Assembly: GCA_963831295.1 (NCBI GenBank)
Contig: CAWHPR010000004.1
Coordinates: 2,026 to 66,025 of the forward strand
Direction: 5' to 3'
DNA from: an uncultured Thermoleophilia bacterium
Lineage (GTDB): Bacteria; Actinomycetota; Thermoleophilia; UBA2241
DNA length: 64,000 nt
Positions 32,946 to 64,000 of the stretch are shown here, one piece after another; the stretch's first letter is position 1; the number at the start of each line of letters is the position of its first letter. The translations under genes and the position numbers were made by a program. A model generated the notes under the pieces. It searched no databases and was not told where the DNA came from. It saw only the letters and a list, made by a program, of their open reading frames with translations.

Positions 32946-33151
32946 GTGCTGGTATGCGCGACCGCGAACGGCCGTTCGACTGCCTCCGCCGCCGCCCGCG
33001 GCGGGGGAGTGCCATGGGGCCAATATGCCCGCTCCTTCGCAAACGGCATCAAGGGCTCAGGGCGTCCAGCCGTGGCGAGGCGGTCATCGCGGCCGCGGAC
33101 CCGGCAGACCGGGCTGTCAGGGCGGCCGCGTACGGTCGCACGTCTTCCGGC

Positions 33152-33675: not shown

Positions 33676-33901
33676 TGCGAGCGGGTGCGGCCAGGGCTGC
33701 GTTCCGCGCACGGGACGGCCAACGAGACCGCGCTGCCGTGGCCGTTCTGTCGACGTCTCCGCTGCTCGGGTCGGGCTACGGTGCGGTCGTATTCCTGGCG
33801 CAGACGGACGCCGTGAAGCCCAGGAGGCTTGACAGCTCTCCGCGCGGCAGTGACTATTCGCCTAATCCCTATCTCCAACAAGGGAATTGGAGAGTCCGAG
33901 C

Positions 33902-34315: not shown

Positions 34316-34392
34316 GCGTCACCGAGGCCTTGCGCTCGGGGCGGCCGGGTCTGGCTCGATCGGCGACGACGGCAGACGGCAGGAGATGAGGC

Positions 34393-44831: not shown

Positions 44832-44845
44832 GGCGGGAGGCGGGC

Positions 44846-46520: not shown

Positions 46521-46977
46521 ACAGGTGGCGCTCCAGCAGCAGCGAGGCGTCGGTGAAGCCCAGCCGCCGATAGAGCCGCTGGGCGCCCTCGTTCTCGAGC
46601 CCCGTGGAGATGCCGATCTCGGCCACGCCGAGCCCTTCGAGATGCGCCATCGTGTGGCGCAGGAGCGCGGTGCCGACGCCGCGCCCGCGGTGGGCCGCGG
46701 TCACGACCGCCTCGTCGACGGTGGCGCAGTCGGCGGCGTGGTACAGCCCGGGGAAGAGGAACCAGGTGACGACGCCGATGACCTCGCTCTCGATGTCGGC
46801 GACGAACGCGCCTGCGTCCCCCCGGGCGAGGAAGGCCTCGACCCAGGAGGGCTCGATCGCCGAGCGCTCGCCGAAGGCGGCCGCCATCTCGCGGATGAGG
46901 GCGGTGATCGCGGCGGCGTCGGCCGCCCCCGCCGCCCTGATCGTCGGTGACACGCCTGTTCGAGCGTCGTCCCTCAC
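46519..46977 (-). CDS. GNAT-family N-acetyltransferase
   Basis: RGRGVGTALLRHTMAHLEGLG...AQRLYRRLGF. Confidence 0.75.
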   Translation of the reverse strand: MRDDARTGVSPTIRAAGAADAAAITALIREMAAAFGERSAIEPSWVEAFLARGDAGAFVADIESEVIGVVTWFLFPGLYHAADCATVDEAVVTAAHRGRGVGTALLRHTMAHLEGLGVAEIGISTGLENEGAQRLYRRLGFTDASLLLERHL

Positions 46978-47062
46978 CCGGCCTCCTTGTGCGACGTCTC
47001 ACATGAGCCGCCGACCACGTAGTATATGGGGAGTCCGTGAGTCCGTCCTGCTGGAGGAGCGC

Positions 47063-48355: not shown

Positions 48356-48997
48356 GTGCGCAACGTCGATCGAAGGGACGTACCGACGGTCACCGTCCCG
48401 CGGCTCGCCCTCTACCTCCGCAAGCTGCGCGAGTTGCGTGCGCGCGGCGTCGAGCGCGTCTCCTCGAAGGACCTCGCCGAGATGATCGACCTCAACGCCG
48501 CGCAGATCCGCAAGGACTTCTCCTACTTCGGCGAGTTCGGTACGCGCGGCGTCGGCTACGAGGCCGAGAGCCTCGTCGAGGTCATCACACGTTCACTCGG
48601 GCTGCACCGGACCTGGAACGTGGTCATCGTCGGCGCCGGCCCCCTCGGCACGGCGCTCGCGCGCTACCGCGGTTTCGGCGAGCAGGGGTTCAGGCTGACC
48701 GCGATGTTCGACAGCTCCGCGACGGTCATAGGGGCGAACTACGGCGAGGGCAGGGTGCGCAGCGTGGTCGAGCTCGAGGAGTACTGCGCGGCGGAGCGCG
48801 TCGACATCGCCGTGGTGAGCGTTCCGGCGAGCGAGGCGCAGGCCACGATCGAGCGACTCGTGGCGGCCGGGGTACGTGCGATCCTCAACTTCGCACCGGT
48901 CCGGGTCCACACGCCCGACGAGGTGCTCGTTCGCCAGGTCGACCTCTCGAGCGAGCTCATGGCGCTGTCCTTCCACCTCGATCGGGAGTCGGACTAG
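48356..48997 (+). CDS. rex: Redox-sensing transcriptional repressor Rex
   Basis: RLALYLRKL...SSKDLAEMIDLNAAQIRKDFSYFGEFGTRGVGY and the Rossmann fold VVIVGAGPLGTAL. Confidence 0.9.
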   Translation: MRNVDRRDVPTVTVPRLALYLRKLRELRARGVERVSSKDLAEMIDLNAAQIRKDFSYFGEFGTRGVGYEAESLVEVITRSLGLHRTWNVVIVGAGPLGTALARYRGFGEQGFRLTAMFDSSATVIGANYGEGRVRSVVELEEYCAAERVDIAVVSVPASEAQATIERLVAAGVRAILNFAPVRVHTPDEVLVRQVDLSSELMALSFHLDRESD

Positions 48998-49094: not shown

Positions 49095-49263
49095 GCATGA
49101 ATCTGATGCAGTACAACTACATGTATTGTTGTTGACACTGCATCCCCCCGATGATAGATATCTGTTGTTCCTTCTGCCGTCCAATGTGGGGGGGGACGAG
49201 AGGCCGACCAAGGGCCTCTCGCTGCAAGCTCGGGGGACAGGTGGCGCCGTCACCTGACCGCAC
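49095..49263 (+). promoter_or_regulatory. Copy 1 of a 169-nt module: AT-rich dyad, TTGACA-N17-TAGATA promoter, three-hairpin leader
   Basis: Gapless alignment to 57839-58007 gives 151/169 identical, with the first 52 nt identical. ttgaca at 49131-49136, tagata at 49154-49159. Hairpins at 49169-49194, 49197-49219 and 49237-49255. Confidence 0.6.
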
Positions 49264-49303
49264 AGTTGACTACTCAGTTGACCGCCGACCGATCGGAGAC
49301 GCC

Positions 49304-50914
49304 ATGGTGTGGGAAAGCAACAGCTACACGCGCAGGCAGGTGCTCAAGGCGGGAGCCGCCGGCGCGGGTCTGCTGGCCCTGGGTCCGCTGGCGGCGGCGT
49401 GCGGCTCCGAGTCCGAGACCTCGACGTCCGCCGCCGGGTCCGGCCCCAAGACCGGCGGCTCGCTCATCATCGGTCGCCACGACCAGCCGACGGTCCAGGC
49501 AGTCGGGCTGGACCCGCACAACTGCGCGGTCAGCAGCGGCAACGTGTACACGCTCGACAAGATGTACGAGCCGCTGTACGTGACCGACGCGGCCGGCAAG
49601 CTGCAGCCGCTCATGGTCCAGGAGCACAGCGTGAGCAGCGACGGTCTCGTCTACACGCTCATCCTCAAGGAGGGCATCCTGTTCTCCGACGGCGCGGCGG
49701 TGACGGCCGACGACGTGGCTTGGTCGCTCAACCGTGCCCGGCTCAGCGAGACGGGGTCGATGAGCTTCCTGAACTTCGCCATCGCCGACGTGAAGGCGGC
49801 CGACGCGGGTACGGTCGAGATCACGCTCTCGCAGCCATGGGCGCCGCTGCTCTCCGACCTCTCCATCTACTCCGATGCCATCCTGCCCAAGGACCTGCGC
49901 GGCATGTCCGACAAGGAGTTCTTCGCGAACCCGATCGGGACCGGCCCGTTCGTGCTCAAGAGCTGGGAGCAGGAAGGCGCCCTGATCACCCTGGCGCGCA
50001 ACGACAACTACTGGCAGAGCGGCAAGCCCTACGTCGACGAAGTCGTCTTCAAGCTCATCTCCGACGACAACCAGCGGATGCTGCAGCTGCAGAGCGGCGA
50101 CATCCAGATCGCCGACGCAGTGCCGCCGGCCCAGGTCGAGTCGTTGAAGGCCGACGGCAACCTGAGCATCGGCGTCTTCCCCGCGTGGTCGACAGACCTC
50201 TTCCTCTTCAACCATCTGGTCGACCACTACGCGGACCGCAACGTGAGGCGGGCGATCGCCCAGACCATCGACACCGCGAAGATCGTCGAGTCGACGACGT
50301 TCGGCATCTCAGAGGCCGGCGGCTCGTTCTTCCCGCCCAGCCTCGAGTACTACGACCCCGCGACGCCGGTGCTCAAGTACGACCTTGAGGCGGCGAAGGC
50401 CGATCTGGCCGCGTCCGGTTTCCCGGACGGTTTCAAGAGCGAGATCCTGATCCCCAGCGGCGACAAGGTGTGGAACCTGGCCGCGCAGATCATCCAGGCC
50501 GGCGCGGCGGAGCTGGGCATCGACTACACGATCAAGCAGCTGGACCAGGCTGCCTACCAGAACGCCTTCCGCAGCTTCGAGTTCGAGACCTTCATCAACA
50601 ACGCGATCAACGACATCACCGACCCCGACGAGATGGCCTCGTTCCAGTGCGACAACGAGTACGGCGGCTCCAACTGCTTCTGGAGCAACTACGACAACCA
50701 GGATCTGGCCGAGGTCGTGCGTGCGGCGGCCGCCGAGATGGACACGGCGAAGCGCGCCGAGATGTACGCGGAGATCCAGGCGACGGTCGCCCAGGACGCG
50801 CCGTACGTGGCCCTGAGCTACCCGCCCTCGGTCTTTGGCTCGACCACCACGGTGAACGCCTTTGGCGTGAACCCCGCGGGCGCTTATCCGCTGGAGGGTG
50901 TCTGGTTGGCGTGA
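49304..50914 (+). CDS. ABC transporter substrate-binding protein, family 5 (peptide/opine/nickel type), Tat signal plus lipobox
   Basis: ATG at 49304. SYTRRQVLKAGAAGAGLLALGPLAAAC. Family-5 SBP body. Confidence 0.85.
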   Translation: MVWESNSYTRRQVLKAGAAGAGLLALGPLAAACGSESETSTSAAGSGPKTGGSLIIGRHDQPTVQAVGLDPHNCAVSSGNVYTLDKMYEPLYVTDAAGKLQPLMVQEHSVSSDGLVYTLILKEGILFSDGAAVTADDVAWSLNRARLSETGSMSFLNFAIADVKAADAGTVEITLSQPWAPLLSDLSIYSDAILPKDLRGMSDKEFFANPIGTGPFVLKSWEQEGALITLARNDNYWQSGKPYVDEVVFKLISDDNQRMLQLQSGDIQIADAVPPAQVESLKADGNLSIGVFPAWSTDLFLFNHLVDHYADRNVRRAIAQTIDTAKIVESTTFGISEAGGSFFPPSLEYYDPATPVLKYDLEAAKADLAASGFPDGFKSEILIPSGDKVWNLAAQIIQAGAAELGIDYTIKQLDQAAYQNAFRSFEFETFINNAINDITDPDEMASFQCDNEYGGSNCFWSNYDNQDLAEVVRAAAAEMDTAKRAEMYAEIQATVAQDAPYVALSYPPSVFGSTTTVNAFGVNPAGAYPLEGVWLA

Positions 50915-50957
50915 CGCCCGTTCGCTCCAACTACGGGATCGACTGAGGAGGCGGCGT

Positions 50958-51887
50958 ATGTACGTCCTGCGCCGCCTCCTTCAGGCCGTCCCTGTCGTGA
51001 TCGGCATCGTCGTCGTCGTGTTCTTCATGCTGCGGCTCATCCCCGGGGACCCGGCGGCGACGTTGCTGGGGACGCACGCCACCCCGGAGGCCATCCAGCT
51101 GCTGCGCGACCGCTGGGGGCTCGACGAGCCTGTCTGGGTGCAGTTCTGGATGTTCCTCAAGCAGCTCGCCCACGGCGACACGGGCCAGTCGCTGTTCTAC
51201 GAGGTCCCGACGCGCGAGCTGATCGCCAATCGCGTCCCGGTCACCGTCGCCCTCGTCGCGCTGGCGGCGACGTTCGCGGTGCTCATCTCCGTGCCACTTG
51301 CGACGTACGCGGCCGTGCACAAGGACCGCCTGCCCGACCACGTCATCCGCATGGTGCCGCTGGTCGGGCTCGGCATGCCGTCCTTCTGGGTCGGCCTGGT
51401 GCTGATCCTGATCTTCGCCGTACGGCTCGGCTGGTTCCCGGTCGGGGGGTGGGGTGAGACGATTCCTGAGCACATCTACGGGCTCATCCTGCCGGCGCTC
51501 ACCTCGGCGCTGGGCATCGTGCCCCTGTTGGTGCGCAGCCTGCGTGCCGGCATGCTCGAGGTGCTGGAGGCCGACTACGTGGCGGTCGCGAGGTCGAAGG
51601 GCATCCGCGAGACCCGCGTGCTGATCGTCCACGTGGCGCGCAACGCCTTCGTGCCGACCCTCACGCTGCTGGGCATCAACATCGCGTTCCTCATGGGGGC
51701 GACCGTGGTGGTGGAGCGCGTCTTCCAGCTGAACGGGCTCGGGAGCCTCATGCTCACCTCGATCAGCAACCGGGACTTCCCGGTCGTCCAGGGCGTCACC
51801 ATCATCTTCGCCCTTGCCGTCGTCGCGATCACTCTCGTCACCGATCTCGTGGCCGCGGCGACCGATCCCCGGATCAGGCTGTCATGA
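50958..51887 (+). CDS. ABC peptide-type transporter permease (DppB/OppB-like)
   Basis: MYVLRRLLQAVPVVIGIVVVVFFMLRLIPGDP. EAA-loop region present. Confidence 0.85.
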   Translation: MYVLRRLLQAVPVVIGIVVVVFFMLRLIPGDPAATLLGTHATPEAIQLLRDRWGLDEPVWVQFWMFLKQLAHGDTGQSLFYEVPTRELIANRVPVTVALVALAATFAVLISVPLATYAAVHKDRLPDHVIRMVPLVGLGMPSFWVGLVLILIFAVRLGWFPVGGWGETIPEHIYGLILPALTSALGIVPLLVRSLRAGMLEVLEADYVAVARSKGIRETRVLIVHVARNAFVPTLTLLGINIAFLMGATVVVERVFQLNGLGSLMLTSISNRDFPVVQGVTIIFALAVVAITLVTDLVAAATDPRIRLS

Positions 51888-52777
51888 GCACTCCCGGAAT
51901 CGTCACCGCAGGCGGCAGTGAGCAGGCCGTAGCCCTGGAGGGCTTCGTCGTCCGCTCCCATCCGACGCTGCGCAAGGCACTGCGCAACCGCTCGCTGCTG
52001 CTGGGCGCGGGCGTCATCGGCAGTCTGGTGCTCGTCGCGCTCCTGGCTCCGTGGATCGCGCGCTACGACCCCCTTGAGCAAGACCTCATGGCGACGCTGC
52101 AGCTCCCGTCCTGGGGGCACTGGCTGGGCACCGACGAGCTCGGCAGGGACGTGTGGTCGAGGCTCGTGTGGGCGGCCCGGTTCGACCTCGCCACCGGGTT
52201 CTTCGTCGTCCTCTTCCCGTTCGCCTTCGGCACGCTCATCGGCACGCTTGCCGGCTACTACGGCGGCTGGATCGACACCGTGCTCAGTCGCATCGTTGAC
52301 GTGGTCATGGCCTTCCCGTACTACATTCTGATCATCACGCTGGTGTTCGTGGTGGGCGAGGGCATCCGCGGCATCTTCATCGCCTTCGCGCTGGCCGACT
52401 GGGTGACGTATGCGCGCACGGTGCGCAGCACCACACTGGTGGCGCGTCGCATGGAGTGGGTCGCCGCTGCGCGCAGCGGCGGCCTCTCGGACCGACGCGT
52501 CATCGTGCGTCACATCTTGCCCAACACGATCACCCAGGCCGTCGTCTACGCGATGTCCGACGTGGTCTACGTGATCCTCGCGGTCGTCACTCTCGGCTAC
52601 CTGGGTCTGGGCATCCAGGCGCCGCAACCTGACTGGGGGTCCATGATCTTCGACGGACAGCTCTTCATGACCACGCGCTGGTGGCTGTCGACCATCCCCG
52701 GTCTCTGTGTGGTCGTCACCGGGATCGGACTGTCCCTGTTCGGCGACGGCCTGGCCGACGTGTTGCGCCCCGAATGA
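51884..52777 (+). CDS. ABC peptide-type transporter permease (DppC/OppC-like)
   Basis: ATGA overlap with the upstream gene. HWLGTDELGRDVWSRLVW. Confidence 0.85.
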   Translation: MSTPGIVTAGGSEQAVALEGFVVRSHPTLRKALRNRSLLLGAGVIGSLVLVALLAPWIARYDPLEQDLMATLQLPSWGHWLGTDELGRDVWSRLVWAARFDLATGFFVVLFPFAFGTLIGTLAGYYGGWIDTVLSRIVDVVMAFPYYILIITLVFVVGEGIRGIFIAFALADWVTYARTVRSTTLVARRMEWVAAARSGGLSDRRVIVRHILPNTITQAVVYAMSDVVYVILAVVTLGYLGLGIQAPQPDWGSMIFDGQLFMTTRWWLSTIPGLCVVVTGIGLSLFGDGLADVLRPE

Positions 52778-53838
52778 CCACCCCGGCTCTCCATGTCGAT
52801 CGGCTCGCGGTCGAGATCTCAAGGGGCGGCGAGAGCTTCCGTGCCGTCGACGACGTCTCGTTCAGCGTCGCACCCGCCCGTTCTGTCGGGGTCGTGGGTG
52901 AGTCCGGATGCGGCAAAAGCATCAGCCTGCGCGCGATCATGGGGCTTCTCCCCGACGCGGCGCGCGCCGTGTCCGGCAGCGTCAGCGTCCACGGCACCGA
53001 GTTGCCCCTGGAGGGCAAGAAGGCGGCACGGGCGCGGCGTGGGCACCTCGCGATGATCTTCCAGGATCCCGGGACCGCGTTGAACCCGGTGCAGAAGGTC
53101 GGTGACCAGATCGCCGAGACGCCGCGCCTGGTGCTGGGCGAGTCGAAGGCGCGGGCTCGTGCCCGCGCCCTGGAACTGCTGAACCACGTGGGCATCGCCG
53201 ACCCCGAGCACCGCTACGACAGCTATCCGTTCGAGCTCTCGGGGGGGACGCGGCAGCGGGTGATGATCGCCATCGCGCTGGCCTCGCAGCCCAAAGTGCT
53301 CCTCTGCGACGAACCCACCACGGCGCTCGACGTGACGATCCAGGCGCAGATCCTGCGCCTGCTGGTCGATCTGCGCGAGGAGATGGGGCTCGCGGTCGTG
53401 TTCGTGACGCACGAGCTGGCGCTCGTCGGTCAGCTGTGCGAGGACGTCTGCGTCATGTACGCGAGCCGGCTCGTAGAGACCGGCCCCACGTCGGCCGTGC
53501 TGGAGCGCCCGCTTCACCCGTACACGCTCGGACTGCTGCGCTCGGCGGTCGACCTGGATGAGGATCTGGAGGCGCCCAAGCCGATTCCCGGCAGCCTGCC
53601 GGACCCGGCGCGGCGTCCGGCGGGGTGCCCGTTCCACCCCAGGTGCTTCCTTGCGACCCCCGAGTGCGCGACCAGTCCGGTCAGCCTGGCGGACCTGGGC
53701 GCGGGTCGCGCCAGCGCCTGCCTGCACGTGGACCGGCTCGTCGCCGAAGACGGCCAAGCGCTGCTCGAGCAGGCCACGCGGGCCGTCGCCGACCGTCGAG
53801 CAGACCGGGCCGACGCCACGGACGGTGGCGATGACTGA
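52774..53838 (+). CDS. ABC transporter ATP-binding protein (DppD/OppD-like)
   Basis: ATGA overlap. [32 protein letters not shown]-terminal oligopeptide-type extension HPYT. Confidence 0.9.
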
Positions 53839-54826
53839 GCCTCTGCTTGCGGTGCGCGATCTCAAGGCCACCTTCGACGTGCCCGGCTATGGGGTGGTCC
53901 GCGCCGTGGACGGTGTGTCGCTGGACGTGGCGGCCGGCGAGATCGTCGGGCTCGTCGGCGAGTCTGGATGCGGCAAGTCGACCATCGGCCGCTGCATCAC
54001 GGGCCAGCTGGAGCCCGACAGCGGCAAGATGCTGCTCGACGGCGCCGCGCTGGACAGCCGCCGGTCCTCGGAGCGGCGGAGAGCGGTGCAGATGGTCTTC
54101 CAGGACCCGGCGTCGTCGCTCAACCCACGGATGTCCGTCCGCGCGGTGCTGGCGGAGCTGCTGCGCGTGCACAGACTGGTGCCCAAGGACCAGGTCGAAC
54201 GCCGCTGCCGCGAGCTCATGGGGTTGGTCGGCATGCCGGACGAGGCACTCGACGGGCATCCGCATCAGTTCTCGGGGGGGCAGCGGCAACGCATCGCCAT
54301 CGCCCGGGCGCTGGCCGTGGAGCCCCGGCTGCTGATCGCCGACGAACCGGTCTCCGCGCTGGACGTGTCCGTGCAGGCGACGATCCTGCAGCTGTTCGAC
54401 GACCTGCGGCATCGACTCGGGCTGGCCGTGCTGCTCATCTCGCACAACCTGGCGGTGGTCAGGTACCTCTCGGACAAGGTGGCGGTCATGTACCTGGGCA
54501 GCATCGCCGAGATAGCCGACCGCGACACCCTGTTCAGCGACCCCCGCGCCCCCTACACCCGCGTGCTGCTCGAGGCCGCGCCTCGGCTGAGGCAGGTAGG
54601 CAAGGCACCGGAGCCGGGGCTCAAAGGGGATCCGCCGAGCGCCGTGAACGTCCCCGCGGGCTGTCGGTTCCACACGCGCTGTCCGCGGGCGGAGGAGCGC
54701 TGTGCGCTGGAGGAGCCGGCCCTGTCGCCCGTCGCCGACGGGCCGGTCCCGGCCGGCGCCCAGCCGCATCTCGCAGCCTGCCACTTCCGGGCGGAGCGCG
54801 GCGGAGCGCCGGGGAGTGCCACGTGA
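53831..54826 (+). CDS. ABC transporter ATP-binding protein (DppF/OppF-like)
   Basis: [37 protein letters not shown]. Confidence 0.9.
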   Translation: MTEPLLAVRDLKATFDVPGYGVVRAVDGVSLDVAAGEIVGLVGESGCGKSTIGRCITGQLEPDSGKMLLDGAALDSRRSSERRRAVQMVFQDPASSLNPRMSVRAVLAELLRVHRLVPKDQVERRCRELMGLVGMPDEALDGHPHQFSGGQRQRIAIARALAVEPRLLIADEPVSALDVSVQATILQLFDDLRHRLGLAVLLISHNLAVVRYLSDKVAVMYLGSIAEIADRDTLFSDPRAPYTRVLLEAAPRLRQVGKAPEPGLKGDPPSAVNVPAGCRFHTRCPRAEERCALEEPALSPVADGPVPAGAQPHLAACHFRAERGGAPGSAT

Positions 54827-56376
54827 CCGCGGCCGGGCGACGGCCGGATCGCGCTCTCGGCTCTCGCTCATACTCGGCGGACGGCTTGAAGGCTGCCCTC
54901 GAGGACTTCGTCGGCCGCCGCCCCGAGTACGCCGGGACGGCCGCGCTCGATGGGCTGCGCGCCGCGGAGTACGCGCGCCTCGACCGCGCGGGTCACACCT
55001 ACCTGGACTACACGGGCGGCGGCCAGTACGCGGAGTGCCAGCTGGCCCGCCACCACGCGCTGTTGAGCGAACGCGTGCTCGGCAACCCCCATTCGCACAA
55101 CCCGAGCTCAGCCGCGTCCACCAGGCTGGTGCAGGACGCTCGCGACGCCGTGAGGGATCTGTTCAACGCCGCGGACGACGAGTACGAGGTGATCTTCACG
55201 GCCAACGCCAGCGGTGCCCTCAAGCTCGTCGGCGAGGCGTATCCGTTCCAGCCAGGCGGCGTCTTCCTGCTGAGCTACGACAATCACAACTCCGTCAACG
55301 GCATCCGAGAATTCGCGCATGCGAAGGGCGCCGTGACCTCGTACGTCCCCGTCCGCCGGTCGGACCTGCGGCTCGATGAACGAGCCTTGAGACGCGCGCT
55401 GCGCGCGGTCACCCCAGGGACCGATCACCTCTTCGCGTACCCGGCTCAGTCGAACTTCAGCGGCGTGCAGCATCCCTTGGAGTGGGTGGCGGAGGCGCAT
55501 GAGCACGGCTGGGACGTCATCATCGACTGCGCCGCCTTCGCGCCCACCAATCGGCTGGACCTGGGCGTCGTCAAGCCGGACTTCGTCTGCGTGTCGTTCT
55601 ACAAGCTCTTCGGCTACCCCACCGGCGTCGGCGCGCTCGTCGCGCGTCGCGACAGCCTGGCCAAGCTGCGGCGGCCCTGGTTCTCCGGCGGCACGATCAC
55701 CGTCGCCTCCGTGCAGGACGAGGGATGGTACCGGTTGGCCCCGCCGCCGGCCTGTTTCGAAGACGGGACGGTCGACTACCTGGGCCTGCCGGCGGTCATC
55801 ATCGGTGTCGAGTACCTTCAGTCGATCGGCGTGGAGACGATCCACACGCGAGTCATGGCGCTGGCCGGCTGGCTTCTCGAGGAGCTGAGCATGCTGCGCC
55901 ACAGCGATGGTGCTCCGATGGTGCGCATCTTCGGTCCACCTGACACTGCGCAGCGCGGCGCCACGATCGCCCTCTACCTGCTGGACCCCGACGGCCGTCC
56001 GTACAACGTCTACGACGTCGAGACGGCCGCCGGGCGGGAGCTCATCTCGATCCGCACGGGCTGCTTCTGCAATCCGGGTGACGGCGAGGTCGCGCACGAC
56101 ATCACCCACGACGACATGCAGCGCTGCTTCGATGAACCGGCCGCCGTGGTCAGCCTGATGGAGTGCCAGCAGATCATCGAGGACGCCACCGGCAAGGTGC
56201 CGAACACCATCCGCGTCTCGCTGGGTGTGGCCTCGGACTTCGCCGACGTGTACCGCTTCATGACGTTCGTTGCCGGGTATCGCGACCGTGCCGCCAACGT
56301 GCAGACGGGGGCTCAGTCGGATCGCGGCCGCCCCGGATGTGCCGACTGCCCTACGTGCTCAGCCGCGGATGCGTGA
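54823..56376 (+). CDS. Class-V PLP enzyme closely resembling the NifS-like N-terminal domain of molybdenum cofactor sulfurase (MOCOS/ABA3); no MOSC domain
   Basis: GTGA overlap with the upstream ATPase. GNPHS, IFTANASGALKLVGEAYPF, LFAYPAQSNFSGVQHPLEW, SFYKLFGYPTGVGALV (PLP Lys), FEDGTVDYL, IRTGCFCNPG (persulfide Cys). Confidence 0.75.
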   Translation: MTAAGRRPDRALGSRSYSADGLKAALEDFVGRRPEYAGTAALDGLRAAEYARLDRAGHTYLDYTGGGQYAECQLARHHALLSERVLGNPHSHNPSSAASTRLVQDARDAVRDLFNAADDEYEVIFTANASGALKLVGEAYPFQPGGVFLLSYDNHNSVNGIREFAHAKGAVTSYVPVRRSDLRLDERALRRALRAVTPGTDHLFAYPAQSNFSGVQHPLEWVAEAHEHGWDVIIDCAAFAPTNRLDLGVVKPDFVCVSFYKLFGYPTGVGALVARRDSLAKLRRPWFSGGTITVASVQDEGWYRLAPPPACFEDGTVDYLGLPAVIIGVEYLQSIGVETIHTRVMALAGWLLEELSMLRHSDGAPMVRIFGPPDTAQRGATIALYLLDPDGRPYNVYDVETAAGRELISIRTGCFCNPGDGEVAHDITHDDMQRCFDEPAAVVSLMECQQIIEDATGKVPNTIRVSLGVASDFADVYRFMTFVAGYRDRAANVQTGAQSDRGRPGCADCPTCSAADA

Positions 56377-57619
56377 GCACCGGCACGCCGCGCTTGAAGA
56401 CGCCGGTGACCACGTCTGATCGCCTGAAGCAGCCCAGATCGCCGGGGTCTTCGTCGATCAGCAGCGCATCGAAGTCGTAGCCCGGCGCGATCCGCCCCAG
56501 CCGATGGCCGACGCCGCAGAGCGAGGCGCCGTTGGCAGTGCCGGCCAGCAGCGCCTCTTCGACGGTCAGGCCGGCCCGATGCAGGTGGTGCAGTTCGACG
56601 AGGTTGCGGCCGTGCTGCTCGCGGTGGCCGAAGTCGCTGCCCAGAGCGACGAGCACGCCGGCCTCGCGCGCGAGCCTCACCGCCTCGCCCAGTCGCGGCG
56701 TGACCTCGCCCATGCGCCGCGACACGATGTCGCTGAGCTCGCCGGCCGCGGCGAGCTCAGCCAGCTCGTGGTAGATCGCCAGGGTGGGGACGAGGGCGCA
56801 CCCGTGTCGGGCCATGAGCCGGGCGTCGGCTTCGGTCAGGAAGATCGCGTGCTCGATGGAGCGCGCGCCGGCCTCCACGGCGACGCGTATCGACGGGCCG
56901 CCCAGAGCGTGCACCATGACGCCCTTGTCGCGCCGTGAGGCCTCGAAGACGGCTGTCGTGATCTCCTCAGCGGTCAGCTCAGACTCGAACGCCCCGTCGC
57001 CCGTCGCCATGACGCCACCGGTGGCCATGAGCTTGATCCAGTCCGCTCCCGCGCGCAGAAGGCGACGGACGGTCTTGCGCATCTCGTCCGGTCCGTCGGC
57101 GCGCAGCGGCGGTCGCCCCGGATAGTCGGGTACGGCGTAGTCGGTCGCGCACTCGAGGGCCGGGCCGGCGAGGTAGCCATCGCCGTGACCTCCGGTCGGG
57201 CCGAGTGCCTGCACCGAGACCTGCAGGTGCGGTCCGGGGACATAGGAGCGCGCGACGGCCTCGCGCACGCCGGCATCGATGCCCCCCGCATCGCGCACGA
57301 AGGTGACCCCGGCCTGAAGAGTGCGTCTCAGCGCTTGGGCGGTCTCCAGGGTGCGCAGCGACAGCGGCGTCCGCAGCAGTTCGAGGGCATCGAAGGAGGG
57401 AAGGCCCACGTGCGCGTGGCAGTCCGCGACGCCGGGCAGGAGCCACAGCCCGTCCGCGTCGATGTCGCGGTAGCCGGGCTGTGCGGGAAGAGCGCGGCCG
57501 AGCGCTACCACCACCCCGTCACGAGCGGCCACATCGAGCGGGTCGCTGAAGCTGCCTGCTTGATCGAGCACGCGCACGCCTCGCATGACGAGGGCGACGG
57601 GATCCTCGCTCCGGCTCAT
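56351..57619 (-). CDS. Amidohydrolase-family metallohydrolase
   Basis: Start is MSRSEDPVALVMRGVRVLD. Metal-binding motif LLPGVADCHAHVG. Later HALG..., and EHAIFL. Confidence 0.75.
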   Translation of the reverse strand: MSRSEDPVALVMRGVRVLDQAGSFSDPLDVAARDGVVVALGRALPAQPGYRDIDADGLWLLPGVADCHAHVGLPSFDALELLRTPLSLRTLETAQALRRTLQAGVTFVRDAGGIDAGVREAVARSYVPGPHLQVSVQALGPTGGHGDGYLAGPALECATDYAVPDYPGRPPLRADGPDEMRKTVRRLLRAGADWIKLMATGGVMATGDGAFESELTAEEITTAVFEASRRDKGVMVHALGGPSIRVAVEAGARSIEHAIFLTEADARLMARHGCALVPTLAIYHELAELAAAGELSDIVSRRMGEVTPRLGEAVRLAREAGVLVALGSDFGHREQHGRNLVELHHLHRAGLTVEEALLAGTANGASLCGVGHRLGRIAPGYDFDALLIDEDPGDLGCFRRSDVVTGVFKRGVPVLTHPRLST

Positions 57620-57838
57620 GTCTGCCCCGGTCGAGCCCGGCCACGACCGCACCCGGCGGTTCGCGTACGCGCACGCGGCGTGGGGCGGGGGTCCATGGCG
57701 GTGGACTCTCCTGCGGCAGGGATGAAGTAGACGTTCATGCAGGGGCACACTCTACTCCCCGGCTCCCCCGACGGGCAAAGGCGGCGGGGTAGGCGGACCA
57801 CGTCCACGCGCGGCACGCCACCTCCGCGAATTCACTCA

Positions 57839-58007
57839 CATGAATCTGATGCAGTACAACTACATGTATTGTTGTTGACACTGCATCCCCGCGATGGTAG
57901 ATATCTGTTGTTCCCTCTGCCATCCGATGTGGAGAGGGTGGAGAGGCCGATCAGGGGCCTCTCGCGGCAAGCCTGGGGGACAGGTGGTGACGTCACCCGA
58001 TCGCACA
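57839..58007 (+). promoter_or_regulatory. Copy 2 of the 169-nt dyad/promoter/leader module
   Basis: ttgaca at 57875-57880, tagata at 57898-57903. Hairpins at 57913-57938, 57941-57963 and 57981-57999. 82 nt of non-conserved sequence follow before the ATG at 58090. Confidence 0.6.
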
Positions 58008-58089
58008 AGGAGGTGAGGGCGGAGGATCTCGACGATCTTTGTATACGCTCCGAGGCCCACTGAGGGCATCCAACGCTGGGAGGCATTTC

Positions 58090-59184
58090 ATGCGAGAAGG
58101 CAAGATCGGGCGGGGGTTCGCCCTGGCGCTCGTCCTGGGTCTGGCGGCCATGCTGGCCGCCGCCGTCGGTTGTGGTGGTCGAGAGGAGACGGTAACACCG
58201 ACAGGGGACGCGACCGATGTGGTCAAGGTGACCAAGATCGCGGTCATCACGCCCGAGAAGGGGAACGACTTCGGCTGGAACCAGCAGGGCGTCGAAGGCG
58301 CGCAGGCGGCTGCGGCGTCGGTGGGCGCTGAGTGCATCGTCCAGGACGGTGCAGGCTACGGCGACATCACACCGATCCTGAACCAGCTGGCCGGCGAGGA
58401 GCCTCAGCTCATCTTCGCGTGGGCGAGCGGCTACAACACCGTCGGTCCGCAGATGGCGAATCAGCTGCAGATCCCGATCACGGCCAGCGACCCTGGTGAC
58501 GAGTCCGCCAACGTGCCTGGTCTCGTCCAGGCCGTCGAGACGAACGGCCAGAACGGCGGGTACCTCGCGGGTTTCCTCGCCGGCAAGATGAGCCAGACCG
58601 GCACCGTCGCCATCGTGGTGTCCGCTGAAGACCTGAACTGGTCCAAGGCCGCCGGCGGCTTCGTCGCCGGCGCACGCGCCGCGGCCCCTGACGTCAAAGT
58701 CCTCTACGTGCAGATCGGTCAGGCCGCCTACGCCGACGCGGCGGGTGGCAAGCGCGTCACCGCGAACGCCATCTCCGGCGGCGCGGACGTCGTCTTCGGT
58801 ATGGGCGACGGTTCGTCGTTCGGCATGATGCAGGCAGTCGAGACCGCGACGCCGCCGAGCGGCGCCGACAAGGTGTGGTTCATCGACGTGATCGGCGACA
58901 AGAGCCCGACGGACGACAAGGGCATCCTGCTCTCGTCGGTCCTTTGGGATTGGACTCCGTTCATGACGGAGGCCATCGCGCAGGTCGAGAACGGCACGTT
59001 CGGGACAGCCAGCTTCTATCTGGACCTCGACAACGGCATGGGCCTGTTGCAGACCGCTCACATCCCCGACGACGTCTGGGCCGAGATCGAGACGGCCAAG
59101 GCGGGCGTCATGGATGGCAGCATCGAGGTGCCGACGCTTTCGAGCAGCAAGGAAGTCAAGGCTCTCATTTCTTCTGGTGAGTGA
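58090..59184 (+). CDS. BMP-family (PnrA/Med-like, nucleoside-type) ABC substrate-binding lipoprotein
   Basis: ATG at 58090 follows gggagg. Lipobox LAAAVGC. KIAVITPEKGNDFGWNQQG.... Confidence 0.8.
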   Translation: MREGKIGRGFALALVLGLAAMLAAAVGCGGREETVTPTGDATDVVKVTKIAVITPEKGNDFGWNQQGVEGAQAAAASVGAECIVQDGAGYGDITPILNQLAGEEPQLIFAWASGYNTVGPQMANQLQIPITASDPGDESANVPGLVQAVETNGQNGGYLAGFLAGKMSQTGTVAIVVSAEDLNWSKAAGGFVAGARAAAPDVKVLYVQIGQAAYADAAGGKRVTANAISGGADVVFGMGDGSSFGMMQAVETATPPSGADKVWFIDVIGDKSPTDDKGILLSSVLWDWTPFMTEAIAQVENGTFGTASFYLDLDNGMGLLQTAHIPDDVWAEIETAKAGVMDGSIEVPTLSSSKEVKALISSGE

Positions 59185-60860
59185 CGATGGCTCCTGTCTC
59201 TCACGAGAGTGACGGGGCGGGCGGGCGCGGTCAGATGACCGCGCCCGCCCGCCCCGGCGACGCTGCGCCACCCGACACCGATGTCGCGCAGACGATCGCC
59301 ATCGAGCTCTGCGGCATCACGAAGGTGTTCCCCGGCGTGCGCGCCAACGACTGCGTCAACCTCCTGGTGCGGCAGGGCGAAGTGCACTGCCTACTCGGTG
59401 AGAACGGCGCCGGCAAGTCGACGTTGATGAACGTGCTGGCCGGCATCTACCTGCCGGAAGAAGGCAACATCCGCGTGTGCGGCCGGGAGGTCTGCATCAG
59501 CTGTCCGCGCGACTCGATCGATCTGGGCATCGGCATGGTGCACCAGCACAGCAGCCTGATCTCCACCTTCACCGTGCTCGAGAACCTCATGCTCGGCCAA
59601 GGCGAGGGTGTGCGACTCAGCGTCAAGAAGGCCCAGGAAGGACTCGCGAGGCTCTCGGCCACGCTCGGCGTGGATGTCGAGCCCGACATCGTGGTAGAGC
59701 AGCTCTCGCTCGGCCAGCAGCAGCAGGTGGAGATCATCAAGGCGCTCTGGCAGGGCTCGAAGGTCCTCATCCTCGACGAGCCGACCTCGATGCTGACTCC
59801 CAAGGGCATCGAGGACCTCGAGCGCGTCCTCGTGCGCCTCAAGCAGGAGGGGCTCGCCGTCATCTTCATCACCCACAAGCTGCCCGAGGCCTTCAGGATC
59901 GGCGATTGCGTCTCGGTCCTGCGTCAAGGTCGACTCGAGGGCACCATCGACCGTGAGGCGATGAGTGCCGCTTCGCAGGAGCAGATGCAGCGCATGGTCG
60001 TGGAACTGATGTTCCCCGGCGAGGCCGAGAGTCTGGCCAACGTCGCCGAGCTGCGCGATCTCGCGGAGCTGGGCGGTACGGGCCGGAAGGCGACGGCCGG
60101 AGAGCCGCTGCTCGAGCTTCAGGACATCAGCGTCACAGGCAAGCGCGGCGAGATCGGCATCGAGGGGGGCTTGACGCTCACCGTGCATGCCGGCGAGGTG
60201 GTCGGCATCGCCGGCGTGGACGGCAACGGTCAGCGACCGTTGGCCGAATCCATCGCCGGCCAGCGTCCGCTCGCCGCCGGCGACATCAAGCTCGGCGGCA
60301 CATCGATGCGGAGGCTGAGCATCGCCGCGCGCCAGCATCACGGTCTGCGCTACGTCACCGACGATCGTGTCAACGAGGGGATCGTCGGGTCGCTCAGCGT
60401 CGCCCTCAACATGGTCACCAAGCGTATCGGCATGCCGCCGTTCTGGGTGCGTGGCCGTACGCGAACGCCTGCGATCGACGACCACGCCACCGGACTGGTG
60501 AGCGAGTACAACATCATGACGCCGTCCATCCACACCCACGCGGGGTCGCTCTCGGGCGGCAACATCCAGAAGGTCGTGCTCGCGCGCGAACTGTCCTTCG
60601 ATCCCAAGATCGTGGTGTTCAACAAACCGACCTACGGGCTGGATGTCAAGACCGCCACCGCGGTCCGTACGCGCATCCGAGATCTGGCGGACACGGGCAC
60701 CGCCGGCGCCCTGGTCATCTCCACCGACCTCGAAGAGCTCCTTGTGCTCAGCGACCGCGTCGCGGTCCTTTCGCGCGGACGCCTCATGGGGATCGTCCAG
60801 AACAAGCCCGGGGCGGAGCAGGAGATCGGTGCACTGATGATCGGAGGGGAGCCAGATTGA
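59181..60860 (+). CDS. ABC transporter ATP-binding protein with duplicated ABC domains
   Basis: GENGAGKST, LSLGQQQQVEI, LILDEPTS. The second domain has LSGGNIQKVVLAR and FNKPTYGLD. Confidence 0.9.
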   Translation: MTMAPVSHESDGAGGRGQMTAPARPGDAAPPDTDVAQTIAIELCGITKVFPGVRANDCVNLLVRQGEVHCLLGENGAGKSTLMNVLAGIYLPEEGNIRVCGREVCISCPRDSIDLGIGMVHQHSSLISTFTVLENLMLGQGEGVRLSVKKAQEGLARLSATLGVDVEPDIVVEQLSLGQQQQVEIIKALWQGSKVLILDEPTSMLTPKGIEDLERVLVRLKQEGLAVIFITHKLPEAFRIGDCVSVLRQGRLEGTIDREAMSAASQEQMQRMVVELMFPGEAESLANVAELRDLAELGGTGRKATAGEPLLELQDISVTGKRGEIGIEGGLTLTVHAGEVVGIAGVDGNGQRPLAESIAGQRPLAAGDIKLGGTSMRRLSIAARQHHGLRYVTDDRVNEGIVGSLSVALNMVTKRIGMPPFWVRGRTRTPAIDDHATGLVSEYNIMTPSIHTHAGSLSGGNIQKVVLARELSFDPKIVVFNKPTYGLDVKTATAVRTRIRDLADTGTAGALVISTDLEELLVLSDRVAVLSRGRLMGIVQNKPGAEQEIGALMIGGEPD

Positions 60861-62002
60861 CTGATATCGCAAACGGAGCGGCCCCTGTCGCCGTTGCGCC
60901 CCGGCAAGCGTCGGTGTGGCGGCGCGGGGGAAAGGCGTTCTGGCGGGCAGCCGCGCCCGTGATCTACGCCCTCATCGCCGGCGGCGTGCTGCTGCTCGTC
61001 ATGGGCAAGAACCCGGCCGCCTTCTACTGGACCACCGTCGAGAGCGGACTGCTCACGTGGGGCGGCCTCATGCAGACGCTCATCCGCCTCGCCCCCCTGC
61101 TGCTCATGTCGGCGGGGTTCATCGTGGCCTTCCAGGCGGGGCTGTGGAACATCGGCGGCGACGGCCAGTTCCTGCTCGCCGCCGCCATGGTCGGCGGACT
61201 CGGCGCCTCGATGGTGGGTGCCATGCCCTTCTGGCTGGCGCTCATCCTGCTCTGCGTCATCGGCTTCGTCGTCGGCGGCGCGTGGACGGTCGTGCCCTCG
61301 TTCCTCAAGGCCTACTACGGCATGAACGAGATCATCACCACGCTGATGATGGCCTATCTCGGCATCAACATCGCCAACATGCTCATCAAGGGTCCGTTCC
61401 TCACCGACACCGCGTACGTGCCGCAGACCAACGTCATACCTTTCGAGTATCTGCTGCCGTACATCCCCGGTTCGCGCATTCACGTCGGCATCATCATCGC
61501 CCTGGTCGTGCTCGGCATCGTGCACTACACGCAGACCCAGACCGGGTACGGTCTCCGGCTGCGGATCCTGGGAGCCAATCCCAAGGCCGCGGTGCACGCG
61601 GGCATCAGCGTGAAGAGGGACATCATGACGTCGTTCGCCCTCAGCGGCGGCCTCATCGGTCTCGCCGCCGCCGTCGAAGTGCTCGGCGTGTGGGGCTACG
61701 TCCGCGCCGACTGGAACCCCGCGTTCGGTATGACGCTGTTCGCCATCGTGTTCCTGGCCGGGCTGAACGTCATGGTGGTCATCCCCTTCGTGTTCTTCTT
61801 CGCGGTCATCCAGATAGGCGGGCACGAGGCCGCCCGACAGGCAGGGCTGCCCAACGACTTCCTGCTGCTGCTCATCGGCCTGATCCTGTTCTTCATGGTG
61901 CTCACGGAGTGGGCCTCGGCGCGAGGCTGGCGCATCAAGGGTCGCAAGAAGAGCGTGGCGGCAGCCGAGGTCGACCCGAAAGTGGCGGTGAGCAATGAAT
62001 AG
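60857..62002 (+). CDS. ABC transporter permease (BPD_transp_2 type)
   Basis: Overlapping start. About 10 TM helices. Typical partner of BMP-type systems. Confidence 0.8.
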   Translation: MTDIANGAAPVAVAPRQASVWRRGGKAFWRAAAPVIYALIAGGVLLLVMGKNPAAFYWTTVESGLLTWGGLMQTLIRLAPLLLMSAGFIVAFQAGLWNIGGDGQFLLAAAMVGGLGASMVGAMPFWLALILLCVIGFVVGGAWTVVPSFLKAYYGMNEIITTLMMAYLGINIANMLIKGPFLTDTAYVPQTNVIPFEYLLPYIPGSRIHVGIIIALVVLGIVHYTQTQTGYGLRLRILGANPKAAVHAGISVKRDIMTSFALSGGLIGLAAAVEVLGVWGYVRADWNPAFGMTLFAIVFLAGLNVMVVIPFVFFFAVIQIGGHEAARQAGLPNDFLLLLIGLILFFMVLTEWASARGWRIKGRKKSVAAAEVDPKVAVSNE

Positions 62003-62930
62003 CATCCTGACCGCCGACTTCATCGCCGCCGTCATCACCGGCGCCATCCTCGCCAGCATGCCGCTCCTCCTGGCGGCGCTCGGTGAGACCATCTCGGAGC
62101 AGGGGGGCCTGCTCAACATCGGCCTCGAGGGCATGATGCTCCTCGGCGCCTACGCAGGCTTCGTCGTCACCTGGTGGTCGGGCTCGTACTGGGTCGGGTT
62201 CCTTGCGGCCATCGTCGCGGGCATGGCGGTCGCCATGCTCATGGTCATCTTCTGCGTGCGGATGGGGCGCGACCAGATCGTCGTGGGCATCGCCATCCTC
62301 CTCGCCATGGAGGGTCTCACCAGCCTGCTGCACGCGGCACAGTTCGGCGACAGCTACCCGCGTCTCGACGGCGTGCCGGCTGTCGCCATCCCCGGGCTCA
62401 GCAAGATCCCCGTGCTGGGACCGAGCATCTTCAGCCAGCCCCTGATCGTCTACATCGGCATCGCGCTGATCTTCGTGGTGGCTTGGCTCCTGTACCGGGC
62501 CAACATCGGCCTCAACATCCGGGCCGCGGGGTGGAAGCCGGTGGCGCTCGACAACGCCGGCGTGGACGTGCTCAAGATCCGCACGATCGCGGTGTTGTCG
62601 ACCGGCGCTCTGGCCGGCCTCGGCGGCGGGTACATGGCCATCGTCACCGCCGGCATCTTCGTGCCCTTCATGACCGGTGGCCTCGGGTTCATCGCCATCG
62701 TCATCGCCATGCTGGGTCGCGGTCGTCCGGTGTGGGTCCTTATCGGCTCTCTGCTCTTCGGCATCGCGCTGTCGATCGCGACGGCTCTGCAACTGGTCGG
62801 CATCAACATCTCCACCGACGTCGTCCAGATGCTGCCGTTCCTCAGCGTCATGCTCGCTCTCGTGCTGTTCGCGCGGCAGTCGTATCTGCCGTCGGCGCTG
62901 GCCATCCCGTTCGTTCGCGGCCAGCGATGA
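61995..62930 (+). CDS. ABC transporter permease (BPD_transp_2 type)
   Basis: 8-nt overlap with the upstream permease. Multi-TM. Confidence 0.8.
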   Translation: MNSILTADFIAAVITGAILASMPLLLAALGETISEQGGLLNIGLEGMMLLGAYAGFVVTWWSGSYWVGFLAAIVAGMAVAMLMVIFCVRMGRDQIVVGIAILLAMEGLTSLLHAAQFGDSYPRLDGVPAVAIPGLSKIPVLGPSIFSQPLIVYIGIALIFVVAWLLYRANIGLNIRAAGWKPVALDNAGVDVLKIRTIAVLSTGALAGLGGGYMAIVTAGIFVPFMTGGLGFIAIVIAMLGRGRPVWVLIGSLLFGIALSIATALQLVGINISTDVVQMLPFLSVMLALVLFARQSYLPSALAIPFVRGQR

Positions 62931-62975: not shown

Positions 62976-64000
62976 ATGCCACACTCGGTGGAGTTCATCA
63001 TGACGGCAGGGCCGGTCGAGCTCTCCGACAAGGTCCGCTCGGCCCTCGCCGACCCGCTCCAGTTCGACTACTCACCACAGTACATAGAGCTCTTCAGGGA
63101 CACTGAGGAGAAGTTCAAGACCTTCCTCAAGACGCGCAACGACATCGTGATGATGCAGGGGGAGGCGCTGCTGGGGCTGGAGGCCGTCTCGCTCTGCGGC
63201 CTCGACGAGGGCGACGTGGTCATCAACGTCGAGAGCGGCCACTACGGTGAGGGCAATCGCTACTTCGTCGAGAAGTACGGCGGCAAGGCGATCCCAGTGG
63301 AGACCGCGTGGAACACGGTGGTCGAGCCGGAGCAGCTCGAAGCTGTCCTGAAGGCGCACCCTGAGGCGAAGATCCTCTGGCTGGTCCATTGCGAGACGCC
63401 TTGCGGCACGCAGACCGATCTCGAGGCGCTGGCCAAGCTCGGCAAGCAGTACGGCAAGCTCGTCTTCGTCGATTCGGTGAGCTGCGCGGGGAGCGTCCCC
63501 GTCGAGGTCGACGCCTGGGGCATAGACATCCTCTCGGTGGGTTCCCAGAAGGTGCTGGGATCGCCGCCGGGGCTGAGTGCCATGTCGATCTCGGAGGCCG
63601 CTTGGGACGTGTTCCGCAACGTCAAGCGGCCCAACCGGTACTCGTACTTCAGCATCCTCGACTGGAAGGAGCTCTGGCTCGAGAAGGGGGTGTGGCCGTA
63701 CACGACCTCGACGACCGAGGTCGCGGCGCTCAACGCGGCGGTGAGCGAGTATCTCGACCTCGGCCACGAGGAGAACTTTCGGCGGTACGCCGAGGTGAGT
63801 CGCGCCACGCGTGCCGGCGTGAAGGCGATGGGTCTCGAGCTGTGGGCGGACAGGGAGGATCACGCCTGCAGCGTCGCCACCGCGGTCACCGTGCCCGAGG
63901 GCGTCGACGACGAGAAGCTGCGCGCGCGCATGATCGAGAAGTTCGGCGTGCTGATCTCCGGCAGCCTCTTCAACACACCGATCTACGGCAAGCTCGTGCG
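62976..64000 (+). CDS. Class-V aminotransferase (AGXT / serine-pyruvate / ureidoglycine-glyoxylate type); 3' end lies outside the window
   Basis: Not in the ORF track because there is no stop in the window; I translated it by hand. ATG at 62976 follows gaagtgagg. MPHSVEFIMTAGPVELSDKV...VHCETPCGT...SVGSQKVLGSPPGLS (PLP Lys). Confidence 0.75.
   Translation, partial: MPHSVEFIMTAGPVELSDKVRSALADPLQFDYSPQYIELFRDTEEKFKTFLKTRNDIVMMQGEALLGLEAVSLCGLDEGDVVINVESGHYGEGNRYFVEKYGGKAIPVETAWNTVVEPEQLEAVLKAHPEAKILWLVHCETPCGTQTDLEALAKLGKQYGKLVFVDSVSCAGSVPVEVDAWGIDILSVGSQKVLGSPPGLSAMSISEAAWDVFRNVKRPNRYSYFSILDWKELWLEKGVWPYTTSTTEVAALNAAVSEYLDLGHEENFRRYAEVSRATRAGVKAMGLELWADREDHACSVATAVTVPEGVDDEKLRARMIEKFGVLISGSLFNTPIYGKLV

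Follow-up and report, generated by a model that had tools for sequence, protein, structure and literature searches.

A cassette insertion duplicated a putative operator–promoter module and its leader at an ABC uptake operon of an uncultured Thermoleophilia bacterium

Orphan leader motifs of actinobacterial ATP-binding cassette (ABC) transporters in Rfam, such as msiK and Actino-ugpB, are defined by covarying helices. In mycobacteria, unpaired G-rich stretches in 5′ untranslated regions (5′ UTRs) are bound by the C-rich loops of the 6C small RNA (sRNA) (PMC6486639). Here we analysed a 104-nt stretch (57904-58007) upstream of the operon of a BMP-family ABC transporter, within a 64-kb window (the whole stretch of DNA under analysis, 64,000 nt) from an uncultured Thermoleophilia bacterium. 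A reading made from the sequence alone (the sequence-only reading) had compared this leader with a second copy in the window and proposed a structured RNA of unknown class, with three hairpins (HP1, HP2 and HP3). We found that the stretch is part of a module, with a putative operator and a promoter-like element at its 5′ end, that was duplicated by insertion of a cassette.

A 169-bp direct repeat created by cassette insertion

The 104-nt stretch is the predicted transcribed part of copy B of a 169-nt module that the window holds twice. Copies A and B align without gaps and in exact register, and a 36-mer taken from the 5′ part of the module has two occurrences in the window, at copies A and B only. 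Copy A follows rex (48356-48997) and precedes an SBP_bac_5 (SBP5) operon, which belongs to the cassette.

49096-49264, + strand: copy A (operator, promoter and first ~105 nt of the leader); aligns ungapped with copy B and retains the ancestral left flank (rex, TGCATGA)
49265-57838, no strand assigned: inserted 8.57-kb cassette (Pfam/NCBIfam), flanked by the 169-bp direct repeat
57839-58007, + strand: copy B, after which the ancestral 3′ part of the BMP leader follows and aligns with its counterparts in L007, L097, L010 and L095

The ancestral arrangement can be read from relatives. Homologues of the BMP protein came from uncultured Thermoleophilia, and ~170 loci were collected from the encoding contigs and from genome and metagenome scans, all of them fragments of metagenome-assembled genomes (MAGs). 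About 22 distinct loci (BMP 65-82% identical) share the upstream region with the window and have one module each; the region is absent from more distant BMP orthologues.

The two copies have ancestral flanks on opposite sides. On the left, copy A retains TGCATGA, as in the clade II loci L007, L010, L095 and L097, and copy B begins exactly at CATGA. On the right, copy B continues in the ancestral way, through CACAAGGAGGTGA / AAGGAGGTGA onward to BMP, and copy A gives way to the ~25 nt that precede the ATG in the cassette itself, matching L168. The same cassette is present as a unit in L168 (SBP5 90% identical) and L171 (79%), where the upstream DNA is unrelated and contains neither the palindrome of the module (see below) nor the leader. 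Since the ancestral flanks are opposite and the cassette lacks the repeats in L168 and L171, 49265-57838 is an insertion in the BMP leader, and the insertion created the 169-bp direct repeats. A sister-strain contig, L170 (SBP5 98% identical), has rex, copy A and SBP5 as in the window. Ancestrally, one module of operator, promoter and leader would have driven a BMP-family ABC uptake operon ending in a pyridoxamine-pyruvate-transaminase-like gene; the 8.6-kb cassette would then have entered that leader in this genome and its sister strain, with 169 bp duplicated on both sides. Because the cassette sits inside the leader with 169 bp on either side, copy A would now drive the cassette and copy B the original operon.

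Divergence rates are consistent with this order of events. At four-fold sites of SBP5 the window differs from L170 by 7.8% and from L168 by 31.7%, and the transcribed part of the repeat differs between copies A and B by 15.2%, a value between the two. Divergence of the leader copies thus appears to fit near-neutral drift since an insertion that, as expected, would fall between the L170 and L168 splits. The leader of window copy A differs from its orthologue in L170 by 13.3%, which is not below the neutral value of 7.8% (P = 0.04 for an excess). There are 11 sites at which the sister copy A (L170:641-809) matches window copy B and not window copy A, a pattern suggestive of gene conversion between copies or, alternatively, of fast change in window copy A. 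Directly after the repeat of copy A (49259-49290), CAGTTGAC is present twice (CACAGTTGACTACTCAGTTGACC), and L170 796-830 instead has CACCTGACCGC twice; judging from this comparison, the junction region past the copy A repeat is apparently unstable.

The genes on both sides of copy B were assigned to families as follows.

49304 to ~54826, in the cassette: SBP_bac_5 peptide/nickel-type ABC operon (Pfam/NCBIfam)
~54823-56376, in the cassette: SufS-like class V aminotransferase (Pfam/NCBIfam)
56351 to ~57619/57748, − strand: convergent amidohydrolase (Pfam/NCBIfam)
58090-62930, + strand: ancestral operon of BMP-family binding protein, ATPase and two permeases (NCBIfam; relatives have the same operon order)
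63000-64000, + strand: open reading frame (ORF) resembling pyridoxamine--pyruvate transaminase, running off the window (NF046070, 302 bits on the truncated ORF; next family 141)

The NCBIfam models named 'putative B6 ABC transporter' score below threshold here (NF047927, 386 bits for a cut-off of 400; NF047928, 442 for a cut-off of 465). Given the names of the transporter and transaminase families, the ancestral operon looks like one for uptake and salvage of vitamin B6 vitamers, a view based on sub-threshold matches and family names. The PDB relatives of the BMP protein are distant, nucleoside/purine-type binders only, so no ligand was called from them, and a literature search on BMP-family B6 ABC transporters or Thermoleophilia riboswitches returned nothing useful. 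The ORF from 63000 is missing from the ORF list because the window end cuts it; a listed antisense ORF (63072-63863) has no family match and is probably spurious. In L168 (1402-9808), a xanthine-dehydrogenase-type cluster (FAD_binding_5, Fer2, Ald_Xan_dh_C, YqeC, XdhC, NicX and cupin) is found upstream of the cassette, a context that may explain why the sequence-only reading mentioned metabolites related to the molybdenum cofactor.

Conservation across the putative operator, the promoter-like element and the leader hairpins

Upstream of the leader, each copy of the module has a 16-bp palindrome followed by a promoter-like element, from which we infer a promoter and a transcription start.

49111-49126, no strand assigned: 16-bp palindrome GTACAACTACATGTAT of copy A, putative transcription-factor operator, 5 bp upstream of the −35
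57854-57869, no strand assigned: same palindrome in copy B, sequence and position as in copy A
49132-49160, + strand: promoter-like element of copy A (TTGACA, 17 nt, TAGATA; TG before the −10), fixed spacing in 22 leaders
57875-57903, + strand: promoter-like element of copy B (TTGACA, 17 nt, TAGATA), same conservation

Of the 18 positions at which copies A and B differ, 16 lie from 49172 to 49258, the number of substitutions that the sequence-only reading had placed downstream of the −10, and 2 lie in the promoter spacer/−10 region (49148 and 49154); the first 52 nt are identical. The operator and −35 therefore have 0 differences in 52 nt, compared with 16 in 105 downstream. At the leader's rate this absence of change has P = 1.8e-4, which argues for clear purifying selection on the DNA upstream of the transcript. 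This DNA, rather than the hairpins, appears to be the part clearly under constraint.

The relatives agree with this pattern. Their upstream regions share one order: the 16-bp palindrome, 5 bp, TTGACAC, a 17-nt spacer ending in TGG, TA(G/A)A(C/T)N and a leader of 280-320 nt. In 22 leaders, TTGACAC and (T)GGTA(G/A)A(C/T) keep a fixed spacing and vary little or not at all, and (A/G)TACA-N6-TGTAT lies 5 bp upstream of TTGACAC, at the same position and once per locus, in ~20 orthologous loci. The family consensus of the palindrome is ATACAAG-NN-CTTGTAT, which is perfect in L016; TACA-N6-TGTA occurs twice in 64 kb, compared with 0.02 expected. A promoter scanner called no promoter at copy A or B, where a perfect −35 (TTGACA) is followed by a 17-nt spacer with a TG before the −10 (TAGATA/TAGACA); the call is absent because this −10 lacks the final T. 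In the more distant loci L015 and L104, rex lies directly upstream of BMP, the leader is only ~130 nt and the palindrome is absent; therefore, the long leader and operator are confined to one sub-lineage. Further inverted repeats, ATGCAGT...ACTGCAT, surround the 16-bp palindrome (49096-49142 / 57839-57885), TGCAT-N7-ATGCA lies upstream of it in copy A and clade II, and in clade I TGTCA-T-TGACA overlaps the −35. Several operator half-sites may thus be present at 49096-49142 / 57839-57885, as far as these repeats indicate.

Downstream of the −10, the three proposed hairpins could be located in both copies at the places that the sequence-only reading had given.

57913-57938 (copy A 49170-49195), + strand: HP1, in copy B CCCUCU-g-CCAU / GUGG-AGAGGG; folds in both copies
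57941-57963 (copy A 49198-49220), + strand: HP2, in copy B GAGAGGCC / GGCCUCUC; stem invariant in three copies
57981-57999 (copy A 49238-49256), + strand: HP3, in copy B CAGGUGG / UCACCCG with one A-C mismatch; from folding

When the 16 substitutions are laid over the 25 proposed pairs, 5 fall on paired bases and 11 are unpaired. Four of the five keep the pair, all by a one-sided change (U-G to C-G, G-U to A-U, and U-G to U-A twice), and the sole broken pair is an A-U to A-C change in HP3 of copy B (49255/57998). The claim that the substitutions largely preserve the helices, with one HP3 pair broken, therefore held. With random placement of 16 substitutions of the same transition/transversion mix, one or fewer broken pairs has P = 0.058; adding the third copy (L170:705-809) gives 20 substitution events, 5 on pairs and 1 break, with P = 0.013-0.022 for one or fewer breaks, and these values are optimistic because the structure was chosen after seeing the sequences. 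HP1 has four one-sided changes and no break in the three copies, and a both-sided (compensatory) change was seen at 0 of 25 pairs across them. The substitution pattern is mildly non-random and suggestive only.

Folding of the leaders gave a mixed picture. The whole leaders of the window are not more stable than shuffled sequences (z −0.37 and −0.98). In copy B, the minimum-energy fold contains GCCUG/CAGGU around a run of G residues (the G-run) in place of HP3, and HP3 competes with this pairing and, in copy B, with UCACC/GGUGA of a Shine-Dalgarno-like block. GGUGG/(U/C)CACC of HP3 is also the site at which relatives hold a variable insert of 135-200 nt. The 3′ arm of HP2 (GCCUCUC) is, from the sequence, complementary to the BMP Shine-Dalgarno sequence (GGGAGGC) in copy B; in copy A just 4 bp pair. 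Neither leader has a terminator-like site that could act as an intrinsic terminator or attenuator.

We examined whether relatives of this structure could be found. With Rfam 15, the 64-kb window gave 0 hits at gathering thresholds, both window leaders at E ≤ 10 gave chance matches to eukaryotic small nucleolar and long non-coding RNAs only, the long leaders of L005 and L007 gave 0 hits at E ≤ 1, and 20 orthologous loci gave 0 hits. In agreement, the sequence-only reading had recognised by eye no purine, ZTP, cobalamin, TPP, SAM or c-di-GMP riboswitch core. A covariance model, R1, was built from the three short copies with the structure proposed by that reading (105 positions, 25 pairs) and searched against 605 kb that included every related leader. 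It recovered only copies A and B of the window and copy A of L170 (125-130 bits); the next match scored 17.7 bits, in unrelated DNA. Alignments were also used, with the qualification that the short-variant copies number three only and that 5′-domain alignments across clades are uncertain. In the clade II rows, HP1 and HP2 pair in 54.9% of cells, compared with 50.7-57.7% when the 3′ partner is slid by one column, so the homologous leaders of the nearest relatives keep these helices no better than slid controls. A favourable shuffle control for HP1/HP2 (12 both-sided cells, reached by 0 of 500 shuffles) arose because three window-type rows contrast with two near-identical clade II rows, and it vanishes when the clade II rows are scored alone.

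Consensus folding of the long leaders pointed the same way. For ten clade I leaders, RNAalifold gave −36 kcal/mol, compared with ~ −133 for single sequences, which is a structure conservation index (consensus energy divided by mean single-sequence energy) of 0.27, with a covariation term of −2.1 kcal; four clade II leaders gave an index of 0.60 and a covariation term of +0.9 kcal. Against dinucleotide shuffles, z averages −0.25 for the full long leaders and −1.3 for the 5′ domains. Several individual pairings were considered and rejected. Stems enclosing the G-run (CGCAU/AUGUG, CACA/UGUG, GGCC/GGCC and others) are not superior to those formed with shuffled flanks (P = 0.27). Long-range pairings in clade I (GUCGAG/CUCGAC, G-run/UUUCCUU and GAGGCC with the Shine-Dalgarno region) and in clade II (GACCGU/ACGGUC, and GGCGGCAG with the 5′ end) lie in motifs that are invariant or repeated, have no covariation and are not common to the clades. 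GGUGG/CCACC as a covarying P3 is invariant, or uncompensated in clade I. In conclusion, there is no evidence of a new structured RNA class, because the covariation and findable-homologue tests both failed; this is the outcome that the sequence-only reading had itself named as refuting its proposal. Of the sequence-only proposal, the hairpins, the absence of a known family and the mildly non-random pattern stand, and the three-hairpin class is unsupported.

Probable co-regulation of two operons and its alternatives

We favour the explanation that both operons are co-regulated by one transcription factor through the palindrome, with the 104-nt stretch as a 5′ UTR stub that the duplication carried along and whose hairpins are weakly constrained at most, and we give this a probability of roughly 0.55. 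The putative factor, acting on the invariant palindrome, would set transcription of the cassette operon and of the ancestral operon alike, and the working part would be DNA. HP1-HP3 would then be lineage-specific stem-loops of the 5′ UTR, under weak constraint at most, for example for mRNA stability or ribosome access, and would not be a ligand-sensing aptamer. If this is true, the locus is a natural example of regulon growth, in which cassette insertion with a 169-bp duplication put both operons under the same operator and promoter. This would be useful for annotating Thermoleophilia MAGs and for tracing the regulator and signal of the putative B6 operon, and is unsurprising in kind.

Across the related loci examined, no regulator gene is consistently adjacent to the palindrome. 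The window encodes rex, Rrf2, TetR and OmpR-type response regulator genes, none of them linked to the palindrome. Rex was considered, since rex lies upstream in the window, L001 and L170, and was rejected, as the rex-BMP loci L015 and L104 have no palindrome; we also take the palindrome to be unlike the Rex box.

Several observations weigh against co-regulation through DNA as a full account. The substitutions avoid breaking the three helices beyond random placement (P ~0.02 with three copies), and HP1 and HP2 together have z ~ −2.1 against dinucleotide shuffles in both copies; with break avoidance and this stability, some constraint on the hairpins is possible. The argument from rates may be blurred by gene conversion, because copy A of L170 resembles copy B at 11 sites. 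The −10 lacks its canonical final T and the promoter scanner is silent. Finally, a pure DNA-level model leaves unexplained the G-run at a fixed distance, the motif AAGGAGGUGA and an excess of Shine-Dalgarno-like 4-mers, all of which belong to the longer leader family.

57975-57980 (copy A 49232-49237), + strand: G-run GGGGGA, the sole leader motif common to all relatives
58007-58016, + strand: AAGGAGGTGA, Shine-Dalgarno-like 10 nt, copy B only; unique in the window, 0.01 expected
58055-58092, + strand: hairpin GCCC-ACUGA-GGGC, then GGGAGG (58078-58083) as the true Shine-Dalgarno sequence and, at 58090, the start ATG for the BMP lipoprotein, from the sequence

The features common to the ~22 loci are the palindrome with TTGACAC, the G-run and AAGGAGGUGA, and HP1-HP3 are not among them. 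Along the transcript, the blocks found in all clades are the G-run GGGGG(G)A followed by GUGA, (U/C)CAC(C), CAAGGAGGUGA, a hairpin GCCC-N4-6-GGGC and the true Shine-Dalgarno sequence. By eye, this hairpin is present in clades I-III, some of its pairs being changed. The window copies are a short variant, missing the 135-200 nt that lie between GGUGG and (U/C)CACC in L007, L097, L010 and L095. AAGGAGGTGA precedes the BMP start codon by 74-83 nt and is kept in ~20 related leaders (e.g. L007, L005 and L001). We take AAGGAGGTGA / CAAGGAGGUGA to be a perfect complement of the 16S rRNA 3′ tail, and AAGGAGGTGA may, from its sequence, serve as a standby or decoy site for ribosomes. A small upstream ORF following AAGGAGGUGA was rejected, as no clade has a start codon within reach. 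This leader family, which combines the conserved G-run with a possible decoy of perfect Shine-Dalgarno-like sequence in its 300-nt UTR, is an undescribed element.

These motifs are the basis of the alternative that survives best, a tentative one that we rate well below co-regulation through the palindrome. Here the leader would act post-transcriptionally through single-stranded purine motifs with no defined fold: the G-run and AAGGAGGUGA would recruit or trap the 30S subunit (standby or decoy), or bind a 6C-type sRNA or a protein, and translation of the first gene would be set in this way. The 104-nt stretch would be the part with the G-run, and copy A a truncated version. The G-run is always 67-85 nt after the −10 in all clades; AAGGAGGUGA, with no start codon behind it, is kept in ~20 leaders and is better conserved than the true Shine-Dalgarno sequence; and Shine-Dalgarno-like 4-mers exceed anti-Shine-Dalgarno-like ones in 21 of 23 leaders with a GC skew of ~0, a strand asymmetry that indicates some role at the RNA level. 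Binding of G-rich 5′ UTR stretches by the mycobacterial 6C sRNA provides a precedent (PMC6486639). However, copy A lacks AAGGAGGUGA and the entire 3′ domain, and therefore this alternative fits the leader family better than the 104-nt stretch. Furthermore, no gene for 6C or another sRNA was found in the window or 20 loci, to which the search was limited, the G-run is not reliably in a loop, and G-rich runs are also ordinary ribosome-binding-like sequence of high-GC bacteria.

A new riboswitch or other ligand-sensing RNA, possibly for a B6 vitamer, is improbable. HP1-HP3 would be its compact form and the leaders of the relatives would carry a variable insert at HP3; GGUGG/(U/C)CACC does bracket the clade II insert in the manner of a variable stem, there is a modest deficit of breaking substitutions, a 'putative B6' ABC transporter and a pyridoxamine-pyruvate transaminase homologue form the operon context, and the lack of a match to any known family means that such an RNA would be new. 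In its most specific version, which we consider equally unlikely, the leader of the B6 operon would be a new cis-acting regulatory RNA that senses a B6 vitamer or related metabolite, directly or via a bound factor, with the 105-nt version as a minimal core (HP1, HP2, G-run and GGUGG/UCACC) and the long leaders as this core plus a variable insert. We know of no riboswitch for pyridoxal phosphate (PLP), and a leader that senses a B6 vitamer would bear on the long-standing question of the missing PLP riboswitch. Against such an RNA, no helix has a compensatory change, HP1 and HP2 are not retained in clade II and the covariance model retrieves no relatives. The long leaders do not exceed shuffled sequences in stability, with structure conservation indices of 0.27-0.60 and covariation terms near zero, and conservation takes the form of short purine runs and not of junction cores. 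There is also no terminator, copy A evolves at or above the neutral rate, and a conserved putative operator, at which a protein regulator would act, is already present at the operon.

Finally, we consider it very improbable that a small mobile or repeated element, resembling a miniature inverted-repeat transposable element, makes up or includes the 169-bp block and lies before two operons by chance: the block has two near-identical copies 8.7 kb apart with sharp boundaries, and inverted repeats (ATGCAGT...ACTGCAT) in its 5′ part, but there are only two copies in 64 kb, ~20 relatives hold the homologous sequence once and always at the orthologous position upstream of BMP, the block ends have no terminal inverted repeats, and they match the ancestral flanks on opposite sides.

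Other features of the window were recorded alongside. Directly upstream of rex lie heme-synthesis genes: hemB/ALAD (43860-44831), a radical-SAM/SPASM protein in ORF 44015-45973 and hemL (46604-48343); the order hemL-rex-BMP is also found in L001. At 28900-33023 (− strand), a 947-aa PocR-GAF-PAS-HD(HD_5) protein adjoins a PAS-GGDEF protein, a cyclic-di-GMP-type signalling pair. The region 17224-20787 encodes a B12-binding protein, a TetR-family regulator, whose 369-aa ORF includes a long N-terminal extension, and an MttB-family methyltransferase, and 33887-35316 an Rrf2-family regulator followed by a PALP (cysteine-synthase-like) gene.

Comparison with described regulatory systems

Unlike the msiK and Actino-ugpB type of leader motif, this leader family has no covarying helices, and no Rfam model scores even at E ≤ 10. 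It resembles riboswitches (purine, ZTP, TPP, cobalamin, SAM, c-di-GMP and others) in its place in the 5′ UTR of an uptake/salvage operon, in its hairpins and in a possible helix masking the Shine-Dalgarno sequence in copy B. In contrast to riboswitches, it has no conserved aptamer core, covariation, terminator or family match, and a putative protein operator is present. With targets of 6C it shares a conserved run of at least 5 G in the 5′ UTR and an organism of the actinobacterial phylum, whereas the G-run here is at least 110 nt upstream of the start codon (110 in copy B) and not at the ribosome-binding site.

The palindrome itself recalls what we take to be the MarR/OhrR-type operator, TACAATT-AATTGTA, and this is a lead only. 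In both, TACAA...TTGTA half-sites form a short (near-)perfect palindrome near the promoter. The two are unlike in spacing and centre, and no MarR gene is adjacent at the window site.

The element would function as an ordinary operator–promoter–leader module does, and it resembles the shared operator–promoter modules of a single regulon, which grows by duplication or capture of promoters: an invariant palindrome lies beside the −35, two uptake operons are preceded by it, and its position is conserved across orthologous loci. Unlike such modules, the duplication here also carried 105 nt of transcribed leader, and the copies flank the cassette as a 169-bp direct repeat. By analogy, this arrangement looks more like the product of a single-crossover or duplicative insertion than like the gradual evolution of a new site.

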